Shown: in pieces, positions 2,736-53,395 of the stretch
Position numbering within the stretch: position 1 is the stretch's first letter
Layout of the letters: the number at the start of each line of letters is the position of its first letter
DNA from: Vicugna vicugna
Taxonomy: Eukaryota
Assembly (NCBI GenBank): GCA_013265495.1
Contig: MU057398.1
Span: 62,001-126,000, forward strand
Reading direction: 5' to 3'
Length of the DNA: 64,000 nt
Notes under the pieces: generated by a model
The model's input: the letters and a program-made list of their open reading frames with translations, nothing else
Told to the model about the DNA's origin: nothing
The model's database searches: none
Translations under genes and position numbers: made by a program

Positions 2736-3030
2736 GAGAGTGAAAAAGAAAACTGAAGAAAGGTGAGGATGTGGTGGGGGAGGCCCAACTGAGGCTTTGG
2801 GGAGGGGGTGTGGGGGCTCCTCAGTCACCTGGATTCAGGCCCCTCTGTCCCTTCCATCTATGCTCTGTGCTTCTGGTCAGGTGGGTACCAGCTACTGTGC
2901 ACCCTGGCCTCCAGGCACGGGCTCAGCAGCTGTCTCAGGAAGAGAGTGATCCTTGACCAAGGAGAATAACCTTTCTTCCTCCTCTGTGGTTTTCATTTCA
3001 GAAAGCATCTGGGTGACCCAACAGCAGGCG

Positions 3031-4158
3031 ATGGGTGAAGACGCCCAGTCACAGGAGATGGCATCCACGAGCTCCCTGAGGGCCACTGAGCCCAGCCCTG
3101 AGGTCAGGCAGAATGGGGACTCAGAGGGGAGGGAAGGGAGACCCCAGAATATGCCTGTAGAACATCACTTTGCGTGTAAAGAGTGTGGGGATGCCTTTCG
3201 GCTTAAGGTTCTCCTCGTGCAGCACCAGAGAATTCACAGTGAGGAGAAGGGCTGGGAGTGTGGCGATTGCGGGAAGGTCTTCAAGGGGGTCTCTGAATTC
3301 AACGAGCACCGGAAGACCCACGTGGCAGCGGAGCCCCGGCCCGGCCCCAGCCGCACCCTTGACGATGCGGTGGAGAAGAGGGAGCAAATGGAGAGGGAGG
3401 CGAAGCCCTTTGAGTGTGAAGAATGTGGGAAAAGGTTTAAGAAGAATGCCGGCCTCAGTCAGCATCTGCGCGTCCACAGCAGGGAGAAGCCCTATGACTG
3501 TGAGGAATGTGGGCGGTCCTTCAAAGTGAACACCCACCTCTTCCGACATCAGAAGCTTCACACGTCGGAAAAGCCCTTTGCCTGCAAAACGTGTAGCAGG
3601 GATTTCCTGGATCGCCAGGAACTTCTCAAGCACCAGCGAATGCACACTGGCCACCTGCCCTTTGACTGTGATGACTGCGGCAAGTCCTTCCGAGGGGTCA
3701 ACGGCCTGGCCGAGCACCAGCGCATCCACAGCGGGGCCAAGCCCTACGGGTGTCCCCACTGCGGCAAGCTCTTCCGGAGGAGCTCGGAGCTCACCAAGCA
3801 CCGGCGGATCCACACGGGCGAGAAGCCATACGAGTGCGGCCAGTGCGGGAAGGCCTTCCGACAGAGCTCCAGCCTCCTGGAGCACCAGCGCATCCACACA
3901 GGGGAGCGGCCCTATGCGTGCGGCGACTGCGGCAAGGCCTTCCGGGGGCCCTCCGACCTGATCAAACACCGGCGGATCCACAGCGGACTGAAGCCCTACG
4001 AGTGCGACAAGTGCGGAAAGGCCTTCCGGAGGAGCTCCGGCCTGAGTCGCCATCGGAGGACCCACAGCGGAGCAAGGCGCTGCGAGTGCAGCGAGTGCGG
4101 CCGCGTGTTCAAGAGGCGCTCGGCGCTGCAGAAGCACCAGCCAACCCACCGCGAGTAG
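3031..4158 (+). CDS. ZNF275: Zinc finger protein 275, 11 C2H2 fingers (2+9), 375 aa from the first ATG of the terminal exon
   Basis: Terminal-exon acceptor tttcatttcag| ends at 3001; ATG 3031 is in strong context (gcgATGG). Eleven CxxC-x12-HxxxH motifs with TGEKPY-like linkers; GEDAQSQEMASTS...EHHFACKECGD...ALQKHQPTH is recognisable as ZNF275. Confidence 0.92.
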   Translation: MGEDAQSQEMASTSSLRATEPSPEVRQNGDSEGREGRPQNMPVEHHFACKECGDAFRLKVLLVQHQRIHSEEKGWECGDCGKVFKGVSEFNEHRKTHVAAEPRPGPSRTLDDAVEKREQMEREAKPFECEECGKRFKKNAGLSQHLRVHSREKPYDCEECGRSFKVNTHLFRHQKLHTSEKPFACKTCSRDFLDRQELLKHQRMHTGHLPFDCDDCGKSFRGVNGLAEHQRIHSGAKPYGCPHCGKLFRRSSELTKHRRIHTGEKPYECGQCGKAFRQSSSLLEHQRIHTGERPYACGDCGKAFRGPSDLIKHRRIHSGLKPYECDKCGKAFRRSSGLSRHRRTHSGARRCECSECGRVFKRRSALQKHQPTHRE

Positions 4159-8659: not shown

Positions 8660-8773
8660 CCTGGTAGATTGTGAGCTCTTAGAAGACAGAGGTGGCCCTT
8701 CACGTCTGATTCCCCTACCAGATCTAGCACAGTGCCTTGCATCAAGTAGATTTCAATAAATATATGTGAAATG
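8660..8773 (+). mobile_element. L2 LINE 3' end carrying a candidate ZNF275 poly(A) signal
   Basis: tagattgtgagctc...tctagcacagtgccttgcatcaagtagatttcAATAAAtatatgtgaa matches the L2 3' terminus. Confidence 0.7.
8755..8760 (+). terminator. Candidate ZNF275 polyadenylation signal
   Basis: AATAAA followed within about 15-60 nt by T-rich sequence; the first canonical AATAAA I found after the stop at 4158. Confidence 0.5.
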
Positions 8774-10170: not shown

Positions 10171-10724
10171 GGCATTGAGATAGCAAGGGGGTGTGTCTCC
10201 ATTTTACCTTGCCCTTCCCGACAATTTCCTAGCCCACTAGCCTGAAGCTTCCAGAACTGCATCCAGATCCACCCTCACCAGCTCCTCCAAAAGACGCTGA
10301 GCCCCACTGGCCCAGGTCATCATCAGAATACTGGACTAAAATGCATTTCATTCCAAAAACTGACTGCCTGGGCTGCCACAAGCCTCACCTTGAAGTGCCC
10401 CATGATGTGAATCTGAGGTGGCCTGGCAGGACAGGACTGAAATCATCACACTAGTGATGAGAGAGAAGAAAAGAGAAACATGTGGGCAAGAGGGCCCTGC
10501 CCACCATGAATGGAGGTGAGGGGATTTGGGCTTCAATGGATTCATGCATCTGTGAGCCTGACATATACACTGGGGGGCTGTTTGACTTTTTCCCACTGAG
10601 CACATGTTATTGCTTTAATTAAAATATTTGTAGACTATGTAATAAAAAACGTGGTCCCCTGACTTCTTCAGCAAGACAGGTTAGAAAAACCCTTTGCTCC
10701 CTCAGTCCTCACCCCTTCTTTGAA

Positions 10725-10860
10725 CTTCATTCAACATGCATTGATTGAGCACCTGCTGTGTGCCAAGCTCCAAAAGAGAATGACATGATCCCTGCCCTCA
10801 AGGACAGGGCACCAAAGCAAGACAGACCTGTAACCAAAATGTTACCACAAGTGTGACCTA
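10725..10860 (-). mobile_element. L2 fragment
   Basis: ttcattcaacatgcattgattgagcacctgctgtgtgccaag...catgatccctgccctcaagga. Confidence 0.65.
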
Positions 10861-11023
10861 TGTTTACCAAGCTGGACTCCTAGGATTTGTGCACTTTAGT
10901 GGATACCGTTACACTTGAGTTTTTAAAAATACAAACAAAAAACACTACAGAGCCAAACACACATGCGCAACATTAGCAAATAAATCCCCCTCCCTCCATC
11001 CTCAGGGCCTTTGATTTTACATC

Positions 11024-11180
11024 CCCAAGAGCTCCCTGGGCCCCGGCCACGGATTCCATGGTGGTGCCCATGATGCTGCTCAACCTGGTGGACAAGCTTG
11101 GGGAGGAGGACGAGGAGGTGGCGGGCAAATACGCAGAGCTGGGGGACTGGTGAGCTCAGAGGGTCCTGCAGCACGTCCAG
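11024..11180 (+). pseudogene. RENBP: Orphan exon fragment of RENBP (N-acylglucosamine 2-epimerase / renin-binding protein), non-processed
   Basis: 11058-11180 translates [40 protein letters not shown], versus RENBP as recalled [44 protein letters not shown] at 11151 replaces Cys; an apparent 1-nt frameshift lies near 11040; gtgggg follows immediately. Confidence 0.85.
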
Positions 11181-12579
11181 GTGGGGGCTGGAGGCTGATA
11201 CCAACTGCCTGACAGGGCCTGGGGAGCTGGGGGCAGGGCGACCCCTCCTCTGCCCACATCCACCCTGCACTGGGCCCCGATGGGCCCCTTTACAGACAGG
11301 GAAACTTGGGGAGGCTCCGCCAGGGTGAGGTGTGGCCAAGGACCCTCAAGAAGGTGGAGGAGGGCCCCGGGGGAGCCGGGTGCAGTGAGGGCAGGAGGGT
11401 GGGTGCCAGGGCCCCACAGAGCAGGAAATGCGGCCAGACCCAAGTTTGTCCCAGGCCTCTTTGTGTTCCGAGACAGCCACTTCAGTGTCTGGTTGGAGAT
11501 GGCAGGCGGGTGGCAGGTTCCCAGAGGACGAGGGAAAAAGTGCAGCTTCAGCCTTGACTCAAAATTGCCTAATGGTGGGGGGTGGGGACTATTGACTCTG
11601 AACCTCAAGGAGCCTCACAGCACCAAGCTGACCACAGAAGGGCATGGAAGATGCATTTGGTCAGTGTCAGGTGGCCAAGGCCAAATCCCAGATCACACTA
11701 TCAGGGAATGAATTTCTGAGACTCAGTAATTCTGAACTGTATCTCCAAATGTAACTGTTATTGCAATTCTGCTATCCACTTTCATCCTCCAACTTTCAGG
11801 GTTGGACTTCTGGAACGACCCACACTCTCAGCATGACGTTGGATGCTTTCGAGCAGCCTGCTGGATTTCAGAAGAAAGGTTTCAGTAGCATGTTTACCAG
11901 AAGGGCGCTTGTACCGAGGATTAACAGTTTGGTCAAATCTCAAAAACCCTTTGTCTTTAGTTGCTGAGAACCATCGGTGTCTATAGCAGTCTCGTGACGA
12001 GATTGCTTTTAAATTTTTCAGCAATTTAAGCATTTTGTAAAGTCTGGTTTGAAGTTTGTTTAGTGGAGATCAAACTGGGTTTTGAGAACCTCGTTTTTCT
12101 CTGAAACATGATTCTTCTTCTTCATATGTTCACATTCGTTACTATTTCAGGATCAGAGATGACTTACCAAAGACACGATTGTATACAACTTTGGAGATAT
12201 TCTTTCTGAAGGTTCTGCTTTATTTTATTCTTGCAAACTGAGAATTCTCCATAGGATTTTTTCTGAAAACATAACCTAACTGGAATCAACAACTGAATAC
12301 TAAATTCCATTCTTAAAGATCCAGGTGCTATGAATGCCGTGCTGGTATACCAAACCACTGAGTGAGATTATTATCCTATGTTGTATTATAATTTTAAATG
12401 TATAAACATTCTCTATTTTATATTCTTTGAAATTTAATTTTAATTACACAAGTGAAATATGGATATAATCTCATTTTAAAATAGTAAACAAATAGGGATG
12501 AAATAAAGGCCCTTTTACCCACTTTCTAGGCCCCTCCTAATCCCCCCTCAAAAGGATCCTTATCTAATCGGTTTTTCTT

Positions 12580-21726: not shown

Positions 21727-22835
21727 GTTGTAGAGAGTTGAAAGGTAACCCTCTAAAAGACATGTAGACATGGAACCTGTGAATGTAAGTTTATTTAGAA
21801 AAAGGGTCTTTACAGATATGATTAAGTGAAGGGTTTCCATGTCTTGGCTATTGCATATAGTGCTGCTATGAAGACTGGGGTGCATGTATCTTTTTTAATT
21901 AGAATTCCCTCTGGATATATGCCCAAGAGTGGGATTGCTAGATCATATGGTAAGTCTATTTTTAGTTTTTTGCAACCTAAATGTCCATCGACAGATGACT
22001 GGATAAAGAAGTTGTGGTATATTTATACAATGGAATACTACTCAGCCATAAAAAAGAATAAAACAATGCCATTTGCAGCAACATGGATGGACCTGGAGAT
22101 CATCATTCTAAGTGAAGTAAGTCGGAAAGAGAAAGACAAATATCATATGATATCACTTAATATGTGGAATCTAAAAAAAGAAAAACAAAGACAATAATGA
22201 ACTCATCTACAAAACAGAAACAGACTCACAGACATGGTAAAAAATCTTACGATTATTGGGGGAAAGAGGGTGGGAAGGGATAAATTTGGAAGTTTGAGAT
22301 TTGCAAATATTAACTACTACATACGAAAATAGATTTTAAAATTTTCATCTGTATAGCACAGGGAACTACATGCAACATCTTGTAATAACCTTCAATGGAA
22401 AAGAATATGAAAATGAAATGAATATATGTATGCATATGCATGACTGGGACATTGTGCTATACATCAGAAATTAACGCATTGTAACTGACTATACTTCAAC
22501 TTAAAAAAAAGTGAAGTATCTCAGTATGTGATCATTCTGGATTAGGGTGGACACTAAATCCAATGACTAGGGTCCATCTATGAGACAGAAGAGAAGACAC
22601 AGACACAGAGGAGAAGCCACATGAAGGTAAGAGCAGAAATTGAAAGGGTGCAGCCACAAGCCAAGAACACCAGGGGTTACTGGCCACTGCTGGAAACTGG
22701 AAGAGAGGCCTGGAACAGAGGAGACCAACCTTGCCCACACCTGGATCCCAGACTTCTACCTCCAAAATTGTGAGAGAATCTGTTTCCATTGCTTGAAGCC
22801 CCCCAGTTTGTGGCACTTTGTTATGGCAGCCCCAT
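21727..22835 (+). mobile_element. MLT1C-like LTR split by a younger L1 insertion
   Basis: 5' part gaacctgtgaatgtaagtttatt...agggtctttacagatatgattaagtgaag resumes after the L1 at about 22517 and ends gcccccagtttgtggcactttgttatggcagccc. Confidence 0.75.
21832..22508 (+). mobile_element. 5'-inverted (twin-primed) L1: ORF2 C-terminus, 3' UTR and poly(A)
   Basis: 21832-21972 is antisense L1. From 21973 it reads sense QPKCPSTDDWIKKLWYIYTMEYYSAIKKN (L1 ORF2 end). TSD aagtgaag at 21824-21831 and 22509-22516. Confidence 0.9.
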
Positions 22836-27900: not shown

Positions 27901-30900
27901 CTAAAAAGGCCAGGGTGACTGTGTGTGGATTTGCAGGCTGTTGTCTTTCATGAACCTTACAAGGGACTCTGCTCCTTTTAGAAACATGGGTTCCAGATTG
28001 CATCGGGGTAAAGCCTATTTCATGGCGCAGGATCACCTTGCCCCTCCGTCAAGGAAGATTAGCTCAGCAGGCTGGGAACCAGCACCCTGCATGTGATTTT
28101 CCTTGCAAATCCCATCTCCCGTGTCAGATGAGTAGCCTGCTGTTGCCGTGGTGAATCGGTATTATACTGTGACCTTGATTCTGAGCAGAAACGTACGTTG
28201 CCTTGACCATGATTACACAAAACTCGTTGCCCAGGAAACAGCACATTTCCGAGAACAGGAAGAGCTAGATCATTCTTGGCTTTGACTGGAAGGCACACAG
28301 GGTTACCTTGTACCCAGTGGGGTCTCAGCTCTCCTCAGGGACTTCTCGGCTTCATGTTTGTGTGTGTGACACGGGGAGTGGGGAGAGACAGAGGCAGACA
28401 GAGAGGGAAAGAGCACTAGCATCCCTCTGCACACGTCGGGAAGTTTCCATTCAAGACAAGCTTCTGCAGTTGTTGTTTGGAAGAGGAGGGGGCTTGCAGC
28501 ACCCTCTCCCATCTCTTACTGGGAGGCTCTAAAGAGGGGAGCAATACTTCTCGATGCTTCTGGCCTCCTGCCCAGTCCCTATCGCCCAATGCAGCCCCAG
28601 AGCTGGGGAGGCATGGTGCCAGGGGAGGCCCCCACTGGGCTCTGGGACATGCTCATTTCCCATCCAGGGTGCCTGACTCCATCTATAGGAAGCTTCCTCA
28701 CATATTCAAACTCACACTCACACACACACACACCCTGCACCAAGGGCAGACAGATACAAGAGTAGCTCTTTGGGTCTCGAGTCTGTTTCTTTCCCCACAT
28801 GAACCATGCATGCTCTCAGAGCTGGCTTCCCAGGCCAGCCATGAAAGTCACCTTGACCCAGAAAGAAGCCTTGGAAGAGGGTTCTTACCAGCCTGTGGCC
28901 ACAGATGCCAGCATGGTGGGGGAGGCAGTTTCCAGCAGGGAACCCTGAGTGAGGACCCCACAGAGGCTGCCCATGGGGGTTGGGGGTGGCCTGTGCCTGT
29001 ATAGTTTGACTTCCAGCTCAATGGCTTCTTCATCCTCCTCTGCCAGGGCCCTTCCCCCTCATGGCTGAGAACTGCCTAGGTTATGAGCACAACCCCCGCC
29101 CCTGGATGGACACACCTGCTGATAAGTAACCCCACCCAGGTGCCTGGGCTGAAAACCTCCACATCATCCTTGACTCTTCCATCTTCTCCACCACGAGTGC
29201 ACACCCATCTCCAGTCTATCAGGCTCCACCAAGGGAGAGCCATCCTCACTCGACTGACTACTGCACATGAGAGGGGTACAATAACTACTGTTCAAATAAC
29301 TGAGCAGACTCACTTTATCAAGATATTCACTTTACCCGGAACTGAACCCGAGATAACTCTGAGGTGTGCTTGTATTATACTCATTTTATTTATGAACAAA
29401 GAAAAAGAAATTGCAAGAAAATGAAAAGATTTGGTGAACTTATAATAAATGTTTCTTTATAAGGATTATTAGTTCCTAAATGCATCCCACAAATTTAAGG
29501 AATGAAACTCTGAAAAAATATTTGAAATATTATGTTGAATTACATAGTCCAACGCAGTATCCAGTGACTCTCTGCTCTACCAGATGAAGACATCATTCCA
29601 CACTCTTCCTCCCACCCCTTCAGTCGTCCACCTCTGGTTTGATTAGATGATTACTTTTACATTGTCAAGGTTTCTAAGATCTGCATTTGGTCCTGTAGCA
29701 GGACATGTCTGAATGCACAGTTCCAACAGTAATGGAATATGAGATGAGTTCTTCATGGAAACCGATTCAGTGCTCAGGACTGTTCTTCCATTTCCAAGTT
29801 CTTTATTTCAGTTCATCTTTCAGTTGGCTAGCCTTGACTGTCCACTGGGAATTTTTACTTTCTGCTTTTAGACTTGAAGGGCAAGTTGGACAGATGGAAT
29901 ATTCTCAGAGTAAATTGTCTTTTCCTCAGAAGTTTGGAAAACTTTCCCCCACTGGCTTCTGGCACTGAGAACTGACTCGGAGAAGTCTAAGGGCAACGTG
30001 ACATTTACCAGAAAGATTTTCTTCTCTTGATTGTTTGCTTTTTCAGGAAACCAATTATATATGTGTTGCATCTCCTTTTCCATCTCCCAGATTGTTATCT
30101 GCTTTGTGTTGTGTGACTTCTTCAAACCTTGCTTCTGTGTACCCAAATGGCCATTATGTACGTGGTCTCCTTGGTCCCATTTACTCAAATTGTTATTGCT
30201 CTGTGTAGATTTCATCTCAGTACTATTTTTATTTTTCTCTTCCCATCCTCTGATTTCTGCTACCTTCCTTTCATTTCCTTCTGCTTTCTTCTAATGTCTT
30301 CTTTAAACTCTAGATCTCTTCTTCAGATTTTCTTGTTTTGAGAAATCATATTTTCTGAAACTTCTTGGCATCTATGGAGATTTGTGTGTGTGTCTAGTCT
30401 TCCTGTATTTCTTGTGTAATTCCCCCTTGTGATGTGCTTTTCATCTCCTATTTGCTTCTCTTCCTTTCCTCCCCTTTTATTTTTGTAATTGTTGCTGTTT
30501 CTAATTTCTATATAGAACCCACACTGGGCTGTGGGTGCCCTTGGCTTCGCCAATATGTCCACACTATCTCCTATTTGCATATCATCTGACTGCTCCAGTG
30601 GCCTGTGTCCTGAAGTTTCATTAATCTAAGCAGAACTTCTGGCCTGTGACCGTTGACTTTGGAGCAGTCTGGTTCCTGCTCCAGCTCTGAGGAGGCATTG
30701 CCGGCCCAGCTGGCTTCCTATCCCTGTCCAGACATAGCTGCATTTGGCTGGAGAGATTCCTAATTTGTGGTCTGGGGTTGTAGCCTTTTTCAATGCTGTT
30801 TTTCTCTTTGAAGCCAGGCCAGCCCATCATTTTTCTATACAACTGGTAAAGGAAAGAGTCCAAGGCCTTGAAGGAATTTCCTTTCTTAAGTCAGTATCTT

Positions 30901-36372: not shown

Positions 36373-38391
<2,019 letters not shown>

Positions 38392-50324: not shown

Positions 50325-50491
50325 GTGAGTGGGGCTTCCTGATGGCGGGCATGCCCTCCCAGCAGCCGACCCGCCTACCGCCTCCTCTGGCCCCAGCCGA
50401 GCTGTCTGGGCACCCCCTGATCCATGTGTCAGCACCGCCAGCTCACCCTGGGGCCCGCAGGGGTGAACGCCACAGGAATGGCTCGTTTTAG

Positions 50492-50698
<207 letters not shown>

Positions 50699-51807: not shown

Positions 51808-52142
51808 GTGAGTGAGGGGCGCTCTGCCGGCTTGCCTGAGTCATTTGCAAAGAGCAGCGGCCAGTGGAGGGTGGCATGGCCAATTTGGGTGGGACATTCT
51901 CTCTCATGGTAGATTGAAATCTCCCAGGGGGTCCTGTGTCGAGGTGCCAGATGAAGGGAGCATGTGCTGCTATCTCACACCAGCTCTGCTATTTCCAGCA
52001 CATTCCCACCTCTTCCCCTCCTGCCCTCCTGTCTGCTGACGATGATACTCAACTCCTGATGCATCTCTTTCCATCCTTGGAATGAGAGAGCTGGGGTTGG
52101 GGGGCAGGCAGTGACACTGGTTGGTGCTCCCTGTCTTTACAG

Positions 52143-53395
52143 GTGACAGGATAAAGAACAAGACGTCGATGTCAAAGCAGAAAGATTGTCCAAAAGAACT
52201 CACAGGGGCCTGTCTCCAGGGTGGCAACAAGGGCCAAGTAGCTGGGCCGTCAGAGGAAACACTTGATCACAGACGGAAACACGCTTGTGGTTCAGAGACA
52301 GGTTCTGGCAGGGGTGACCATCCCCAGGAGAAAGGCCAAGGCAGCTCCTGGGGTGATGGAAGAGAGACACCAAGAAGCAGCTGTGGTGGCAGGCAGGATT
52401 CCGTTCTAAGGCAGCAGGGCTCCAAAGGCGCTGACAAGCGGTTCCTGTGTCAGCAGTGTGGGAAATCCTTCAGCCGGAGCTCCAACCTCATCAAGCACCG
52501 GATCATCCACAGCGGTGAGAAGCCCTACGAGTGTGGCGAGTGTGGGAAACTCTTCCGGCGCAGCTTCGCGCTCCTCGAGCATCAGCGCATCCACAGCGGT
52601 GAGAAGCCCTATGCGTGCGGCGAGTGCGGGAAGACCTTCACGCGCAGCTCCAACCTCATCAAGCACCAAATCATCCACAGCGGCGAGAAGCCCTACGAGT
52701 GTGGCGAGTGCGGGAAACTCTTCCGGCGCAGCTTCGCGCTCCTGGAGCACCAGCGCATCCACAGCGGTGAGCGGCCCTACGCGTGCGGCGAGTGCGGGAA
52801 GGCCTTCAGCAGGAGCTCCAACCTTATCGAGCACCAGCGCACCCACAGCGGCGAGAAGCCCTACACATGCAGCCAGTGTCCGAAAGCCTTCAAGGGCATC
52901 TCCCAGCTCATTCACCACCAGCGCATCCACAGCGGGGAGAAGCCGTTTGAGTGCAAGGAGTGCGGGAAGACCTTCCGGGGGCGCTCGGGCCTCAGCCAGC
53001 ACCGGCGGGTGCACAGCGGGGAGAAGCCCTACGAGTGCAGCGAGTGCGGGAAGACCTTCAGCAGGCGATCCAACCTCTTCAAGCACCAGGCTGTGCACAG
53101 TGAGGAGAGGCCCTACGAATGTCTAGAGTGCGGGAAGATGTTCCGCAACAGCTCGGTCCTCCAGGAGCATCGGAGCACCCACAGTGGCCAGGGGCCGCGC
53201 GCGGGCGGCGACTGCAGCAAGGCCTTCAAGGGGAAGTTGCTGAAAACTCGCAGTGGAAGAAAGCTCTCGGAGGGGAGTGGCTTGGAAAAGGTGCCAGCCT
53301 CCTTGGGCCTCGGAAGACCTGCTGCAGAGCCCCGCCCCGAGGACGAGAAACACCGGTCACACTCCGAGGGCATGGCAGTCCCCAGTGCAGACTGA
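52143..53395 (+). CDS. ZFP92: ZFP92 zinc-finger exon, 9 C2H2 fingers; spliced CDS 1518 nt, 505 aa
   Basis: ctgtctttacag| acceptor. Fingers with RSSNLIKH / RSFALLEH / GISQLIHH / GRSGLSQH helices are recognisable as ZFP92. Exon lengths 33+127+105+1253 keep the frame to TGA. Confidence 0.92.

Follow-up and report, generated by a model that had tools for sequence, protein, structure and literature searches.

A short, intron-bearing and decayed copy of part of RENBP downstream of a ZNF275-type gene in the vicugna genome

The DNA downstream of a ZNF275-type zinc-finger gene in the vicugna genome carries a copy of a small part of RENBP. Throughout this text, the window denotes the whole 64-kb stretch of DNA that was analysed, corresponding to C74:62001-126000, where C74 is our working label for the contig that carries it. 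The copy, located at 11030-11463 of the window, is a real fragment of RENBP, its match being far beyond chance. Moreover, it is non-processed and does not represent a processed retrocopy, because identity to the parent gene crosses an exon-intron boundary and 283 bp of intron are kept. This apparently germline-fixed fragment is probably the outcome of a single insertion, templated in cis at a repaired break and followed by neutral drift for about 7-15 Myr. The copy cannot encode RENBP, and an unchanged 5′ splice site is the only ready-made signal that it brought along.

Extent and source of the copy

To define the source of the fragment, positions 10900-11800 were used as query against the window's own assembly (2.03 Gb). 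The sole non-self match in this genome is C74:609578-610012 on the minus strand, with 97% identity over query positions 131-564 (E 6.6e-205). In the blastn alignment of copy and parent, window positions 11030-11463 (+) show 421/435 identities and one gap. The RENBP donor is found about 536 kb from the copy, on the same contig and in the opposite orientation. With a size of 434 bp, the copy starts in the middle of coding exon 5 and stops in the middle of intron 5. Specifically, the exon-derived part (11030..11180, +) corresponds to the 3′ end of coding exon 5 (151 bases in the copy, 152 in the parent), as delimited by blastn against C74:609861-610012(-), by tblastn and by the parent model, and it spans about 50 of the 418 RENBP codons. 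Eight mammalian proteins, namely seven of the RENBP type and one hamster ZNF275 model, match this part in tblastn with E values from 4e-22 to 1e-13. The intron-derived part (11181..11463, +), delimited by the alignment and the parent model, reproduces the beginning of RENBP intron 5, 283 bases out of 565, and departs from the parent at 5 positions.

These boundaries modify the original prediction in part. The feature had been drawn at 11024-11600, while the homologous block comprises 11030-11463 only. Similarly, the exon piece had been described as being followed by about 400 bp of GC-rich, intron-like DNA: the contrast in G+C content is confirmed (66.8% in the insert, against 43% in the left 500 bp and 48% in the right 500 bp), and 283 bp are indeed RENBP intron, but 11464-11600 is local single-copy sequence. 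The remaining anatomy was recovered as proposed. In particular, the peptide reported for 11058-11180 is identical to our translation, with one TGA inside, and the residues ELPG and PATDS, described as lying across a 1-nt frameshift, are read in two frames one base apart, the parent having one more G at 11037-11040. The end of the piece at CAG|GTGGGG coincides with the boundary found at 11180|11181. The assignment of the peptide to RENBP is upheld by the own-genome DNA match given above (E 6.6e-205) and by pig N-acyl-D-glucosamine 2-epimerase (RENBP, 1fp3_A), residues 179-209 of which match the first 31 residues of the 11058-11180 peptide (E 2.2e-9). Finally, the proposal of a non-processed copy made at the DNA level stands, as identity does not stop at 11180 but runs 283 bp past it into the intron.

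The 31-residue piece of the copy gave no Pfam hit, being too short for Pfam, and a PF07221 profile match was obtained at the parent RENBP locus only, with none at the copy. When the genome was searched with the cheetah RENBP protein, 11 places were found, ten of them in the parent locus and the other one being the copy. The search with parent DNA returned the parent itself, the copy and at least 38 copies of an interspersed repeat located in intron 4. Neither the protein nor the DNA searches detected a further RENBP piece elsewhere in the genome. Three tblastn matches in the window (21892-22029, 27974-28081 and 50483-50647), considered as other RENBP exons, were rejected as chance matches with E values of at least 0.17; such weak matches recur across queries because the query proteins are mutual orthologues.

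As regards the position of the copy, the ZNF275-type C2H2 zinc-finger coding exon is located at 2950..4158 (+), as identified by Pfam C2H2 matches and by 84% identity to hamster zinc finger protein 275. This ORF stops at 4158, and 6.9 kb separate its stop codon from the insert further downstream. The distance of about 2.3 kb given earlier had been reckoned from an AATAAA at 8755, a putative ZNF275 3′ end. Copy and ZNF275-type ORF are both on the plus strand, in agreement with what had been stated.

The parent gene

A model of the parent gene was built from tblastn matches of the cheetah, pig and dromedary RENBP proteins together with a search for splice sites. The model includes ten coding exons at C74:612166-605280(-), begins with an ATG, has GT...AG at all introns and runs for 418 aa to the stop codon. 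Exon 5 occupies 610085-609861 and intron 5 occupies 609860-609296 (565 bp). Identity of the predicted protein reaches 90.8% with cheetah RENBP (413 aa compared) and 90.5% with the pig protein (402 aa compared). The parent RENBP is intact: the gene expected elsewhere in the genome is represented by a complete 10-exon model on the same contig as the copy.

The top protein matches of parent exon 5 are two Camelus dromedarius RENBP entries, at 99%, and the parent model is 98.2% identical to one C. dromedarius RENBP over 275 aa. The C. dromedarius RENBP models P0004 and P0005 (283 and 317 aa, respectively) begin within intron 4 and are devoid of exons 1-4. They look like truncated annotation, not gene loss, because all ten coding exons are present and open in the vicugna genome.

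Two further observations concern the parent locus. At C74:609916, equivalent to window position 11125, the parent encodes Val (GTC) and the copy Gly; Gly is found in 18 of the 22 mammalian rows compared, including dromedary, and Thr in four rodent rows. The Val at this site is a lineage-specific or individual replacement in a working RENBP. In addition, RENBP intron 4 harbours, at about C74:610420-611065, an interspersed repeat of some 600-650 bp, at least 38 other genomic copies of which were scored at 75-80% identity among 2691 first-look candidates.

Decay and age

Copy and parent differ at 14 positions, comprising 13 substitutions (7 transitions and 6 transversions) and one single-base deletion, and the K2P distance between them is 0.031. 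Mammalian substitution rates are assumed here to be 1.0-2.2e-9 per site per year, and at these rates the copy is roughly 7-15 Myr old.

Two of the differences affect the reading frame. A one-base deletion in a G run, revealed by the alignment to the parent (11037..11040, +; GGGG in the parent and GGG in the copy), shifts the RENBP frame. Further downstream, an in-frame TGA stop (11151..11153, +) takes the place of a TGC codon of the parent, whose Cys is found in 22/22 mammalian rows compared. This frameshift and this stop bear out the earlier statement that the piece is dead as protein; the open frame over the epimerase domain that characterizes a functional RENBP, or GlcNAc 2-epimerase (PF07221), is absent from the copy.

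The direction of change was read against 22 mammalian RENBP rows, picked by hand among the 120 matches listed. The copy has D, V, K, V and a stop in place of E, A, Q, L and C. The L is shared by 21/22 rows, and each of the other four replaced residues by 22/22. Five of the six replacement differences with a readable direction, including the stop, arose in the copy, and the sixth arose in the parent.

The differences are not evenly spread, with 9 in the 151 bases of the exon-derived part and 5 in the 283 bases of the intron-derived part (Fisher p 0.024, or 0.071 when substitutions alone are counted). This excess is weak evidence. It may be accounted for by CpG density, as there are 8 CpGs in 152 bases of the exon part and 8 in 283 bases of the intron part, and several changes fall at CpGs, whether present or inferred. 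Alternatively, it could be due to chance, or to synthesis that was error-prone close to one of the junctions. With differences about three times denser in the exon part, the pattern is the reverse of that expected if the parent exon had been under constraint. Nor is it predicted by simple neutral decay, a point against the explanation that we consider the best.

Junctions and flanking DNA

At the left junction, 11029|11030 (11028..11031), the parent has CCCC before AGCTCC and the window has CCCCAAG. A few bases of microhomology (a CCCC/AG overlap) or of filler are possible at this point, to judge from the letters on the two sides. A T/G mismatch at 11461 leaves an uncertainty of 2-4 bases in the position of the right junction, which was placed by alignment at about 11463|11464 (11459..11466).

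Outside these limits, no similarity between window and parent was detected either upstream of 11030 or downstream of 11463, the alignment being at chance level past the latter position. The upstream half of the conserved exon 5 is absent beside the copy. Comparison of the 64-kb window with the 20 kb surrounding the parent, by blastn with a word size of 7, added no RENBP homology, apart from a chance-level tail to 11489. Window positions 22028-22138 resemble C74:603082-603193, 2 kb past the RENBP stop (114 bp, 66%, same strand); as a candidate for RENBP-derived DNA, this match was set aside and taken as a shared old repeat unrelated to the copy.

Both flanks are single-copy apart from a short repeat core. 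In the genome search, the right flank (11464-12300) matches itself alone, and the left flank (10200-11029) matches itself and, near 10717-10775, gives 10 short repeat matches of 38-54 bases. The segment 10717-10775 is the short core of an old interspersed repeat, with 83-92% identity to its 10 genomic matches, and presumably resembles a MIR element. No second templated patch was found in the flanks, which are single-copy and without a match near the donor.

The junctions were also inspected for traces of retrotransposition. No target-site duplication was found: the longest word common to the two junction zones is 5 bases long and does not abut the left junction, and a shared word of this length was attained in 1491 of 2000 shuffles. 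No run of at least six A or T is present within 60 bp of either junction. The insert itself is free of AATAAA and ATTAAA on both strands, and the A and T runs in it are no longer than 3.

Origin of the insertion

The explanation that we hold to be the most probable starts from a chromosome break, or a stalled fork, that would have occurred in non-coding DNA downstream of ZNF275. The break would have been healed by copying a short stretch of RENBP, with the template in cis, and by rejoining. In general terms, the event would be classified as a single templated insertion produced by end-joining or by a template switch (MMBIR/FoSTeS-like), in which the donor is left untouched and the DNA template is reached via strand invasion or template switching during repair of the break or fork. 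From then on, the inserted piece would have decayed neutrally and would encode nothing. The idea of a templated repair insertion, or of the scar of a rearrangement, had already been put forward in the original prediction, and it fits the anatomy described above: the breakpoints are sharp, the flanks are single-copy, and neither a target-site duplication nor poly(A) was found. Microhomology, filler bases and deletion of the target are the signatures that separate repair pathways.

The choice of a nearby DNA template over an RNA patch is based on the position of the donor. For a donor placed at random, a distance of up to 536 kb in either direction would have a probability of about 1.07 Mb/2027 Mb, or 5e-4, and we prefer a DNA template because the donor is in cis, at a distance so rarely expected by chance. 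A template that is near in cis and often inverted is a feature of FoSTeS/MMBIR that the RENBP donor shares, at 536 kb from the copy, on one contig with it and on the opposite strand. In passages of PMC5120786, replication-based and end-joining mechanisms are described as sources of inverted intrachromosomal insertions whose junctions have 0-3 bp of homology. The clinical FoSTeS/MMBIR cases in these passages (PMC5120786) involve far larger segments and frequently include several switches, flanking CNVs or triplications, whereas the present insertion is one 434-bp block with no second templated patch.

It is possible, although we consider it unlikely, that the template was RNA. According to this explanation, unspliced RENBP pre-mRNA would have been reverse-transcribed by an endonuclease-independent cellular reverse transcriptase and captured at a double-strand break, giving rise to a class 2 templated sequence insertion (TSI/TSIP). 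For insertions of this class, passages of Onozawa and Aplan (PMC5110952) favour a patch of reverse-transcribed RNA, with donors scattered over the genome. The same passages depict insertions of a few hundred bases at an unrelated site, templated from a distant locus that belongs to a transcribed gene, introns included; the donor stays intact, and target-site duplication, poly(A) tract and poly(A) signal are lacking (PMC5110952). The copy has much in common with them: its template is distant, with an intact donor, and no target-site duplication of at least 5 bp, poly(A) tract or cryptic poly(A) signal was found. Of the end-joining marks typical of the class (microdeletion, microhomology or non-templated bases at the junctions), the possible CCCC/AG overlap on the left is the only one visible. 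Its 434 bp are to be compared with experimental inserts of 73-414 bp (passages of PMC5110952). Moreover, the whole piece lies within the RENBP transcription unit as a contiguous exon-intron stretch, and nascent RNA is also held near its own gene, which makes an RNA template at such a distance possible.

On the other hand, the donors in passages of PMC5110952 come from 18 of 24 chromosomes without favouring any region, whereas the RENBP donor sits in cis, 536 kb from the copy, a placement with a probability of about 5e-4 by chance, and the sequence requires no RNA step. The cases in these passages (PMC5110952) also differ from ours in being human polymorphisms and cell-line events, while the copy appears fixed or widespread, is millions of years old, and is only possibly of RNA origin. 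Strand and orientation are uninformative on this point, and RNA and DNA templates yield the same sequence. The features of class 1 TSI, L1-mediated retrocopies and processed pseudogenes, represented by a target-site duplication, a 3′ poly(A), insertion at TTTT/A and, in processed copies, the lack of introns, are foreign to the copy, which has no target-site duplication and no poly(A), is bordered on the left by ...CCCCAAG and keeps its intron.

A further explanation, which appears improbable, is that the copy is the remnant of a larger segmental duplication or inversion that brought RENBP beside ZNF275 and was subsequently trimmed by deletions. In a variant of it, an old copy would have been refreshed by gene conversion. 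The two loci do belong to one chromosomal block and have opposite orientation, and 434 bp is a plausible length for a gene-conversion tract. In addition, a hamster model named zinc finger protein 275 ends in the same RENBP exon, and the two genes may thus have joined in another lineage. Nevertheless, a remnant or a conversion is disfavoured because flanking homology is completely lacking: a word size of 7 reveals none to the left or to the right, exon 5, a well-conserved one, is present without its upstream half, the flanks are single-copy, and the window and the genome contain no other RENBP fragment. The variant with gene conversion of an old copy was rejected on the same absence of flanking homology. 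As for the hamster model, its tail has rodent-type residues and the camelid copy has camelid-type residues; since the residues are typical of the lineage in each, the two are not one shared old copy.

Segmental duplications are conventionally defined by a minimum length of 1 kb and a minimum identity of 90%. The copy, with 434 bp at 97% and no extension at lower stringency, is below this length, and it differs from segmental duplications and duplicated pseudogenes in consisting of one partial exon with no duplicated flanks, dispersed and inverted instead of tandem. It shares with non-processed pseudogene fragments the nature of an intron-bearing partial gene copy with an acquired frameshift and stop. 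The kind of event proposed, a cis-templated insertion at a repaired break, is already well known, and the copy is probably an ordinary dead scar of DNA repair that suggests no new biology. In a literature search, judged from titles and abstract openings, no paper on such a duplication involving RENBP and ZNF275 was found. The value of the copy is that of a clean and datable example of a short intron-bearing fragment copied in cis, in which donor, extent, orientation and decay are resolved, and of a data point on the reach and orientation of template choice in break repair. Furthermore, the site is usable as a presence/absence marker for camelid phylogeny. For annotation purposes, 11030-11180 should be masked as a RENBP pseudo-exon and kept out of ZNF275 or RENBP-like models.

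Retained splice donor and coding potential

The copy retains the RENBP 5′ splice site, CAG|GTGGGG (11178..11186, +), which is identical to the parent donor in the alignment and in the parent model; copy and parent show no difference from 11154 to 11283. The DNA next to the insert, local and not derived from RENBP, contains an AATAAA at 10979 and a pyrimidine-rich run that ends with CAG at 11005, 24 bases before the insert (10979..11005, +). On the basis of these motifs, the acceptor-like run and the imported donor could frame a pseudo-exon of 175 bases.

Whether such a pseudo-exon is used is a matter of present function, compatible with every origin proposed. It seems a slim chance that the imported donor and the pyrimidine tract/AG at 10986-11005 have been co-opted, providing extended ZNF275 transcripts with a new 175-base exon or with an alternative 3′ end. 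The arguments in favour are the identity of the donor with that of the working parent, the acceptor-like run with its CAG and the AATAAA just upstream, and a location on the strand of the zinc-finger gene; the arguments against are the stops in both frames that were read through the putative exon, namely that of RENBP and the one with which the exon opens, and the frameshift, stop and unconstrained replacements in the piece. Just as speculative is a broader picture, in which the scrap would not be inert, acting as a lineage-specific ZNF275 exon or 3′ variant, and the independent union of ZNF275 fingers with this RENBP exon in the hamster model would reflect a recurrent choice of template between loci that touch each other in the folded chromosome, rather than coincidence or a misassembly.

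Two frames that overlap the insert, 11199-11711(+) and 11156-11614(-), matched no Pfam family and were rejected as genes, being chance frames in G+C-rich DNA.

Support for the locus in sequencing runs

The 871 31-mers of positions 10800-11700 are divided into 407 flank-only, 165 common to the parent, 239 copy-specific and 60 junction-spanning ones, and the share attainable has a ceiling of 0.66 for a genome without the copy and of 0.93 for one without both junctions. Fourteen DNA runs (12 samples, 9 studies and 4 organism labels) contain 0.95-0.96 of 101 sampled 31-mers of this interval, shares that give indirect support for the junctions, one of the 14 runs being possibly the assembly's own sample. 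On these k-mer shares, an assembly artefact is unlikely. The specific scenario of RENBP-locus reads misjoined into the contig at 11030-11463, suggested by a piece that is short, G+C-rich and sharply bounded, is very unlikely, because the 14 differing positions indicate that the copy is not made of the parent's reads, and the 14 runs from 9 studies lie above both ceilings.

Six runs recorded or guessed as RNA contain 0.13-0.32 of the sampled 31-mers, a result that says nothing either way on transcription. Similarly uninformative was the comparison of the junction-spanning ORF 11280-11708 (143 aa) with a collection of 5.8 billion proteins, in which 0 of 47 candidates scored. Within a camelid lineage, the copy appears to be fixed, or widespread at the very least. 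If the genome is that of a South American camelid, the four organism labels may be very close relatives, and the shared insert would then say little on its age.

Hamster gene models and other genes of the window

The hamster model mentioned above is MEJ1274907.1 (P0093; zinc finger protein 275, Cricetulus griseus), a protein of 532 aa in which ZNF275 fingers are followed, at the end, by the whole RENBP exon-5 peptide. Its zinc fingers are 84% identical to the window ORF, and its counterparts in the window are 2950-4083 and 11046-11186. The last zinc finger is cut short in this model, and the RENBP exon is preceded by 8 residues that seem to be translated intron. It is the sole such fusion among 48 matches, and its own cluster has one member. 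A real rearrangement might underlie MEJ1274907.1, as might a change in a cell line or a misjoin; the latter two come into consideration because the 8 residues look like intron read-through.

The RENBP-type proteins P0095 and P0066 of C. griseus are about 20% different from each other in exon 5. In particular, P0095 is without three middle exons and has its exon-5 peptide in common with the ZNF275 fusion model. This could mean that two RENBP copies exist in the hamster, or that its assemblies disagree.

As a whole, the window is a mammalian X-linked-type block. In addition to the ZNF275-type exon, it includes a second zinc-finger ORF (52115-53395, +) and a PNMA-family ORF of 672 aa (36373-38391, -), in which Pfam recognizes a PNMA N-terminal and a PNMA domain. 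Between these domains the PNMA ORF contains a collagen-like Gly-X-Y stretch (Pfam Collagen, E 2.8e-10), in a region with 66-68% G+C.
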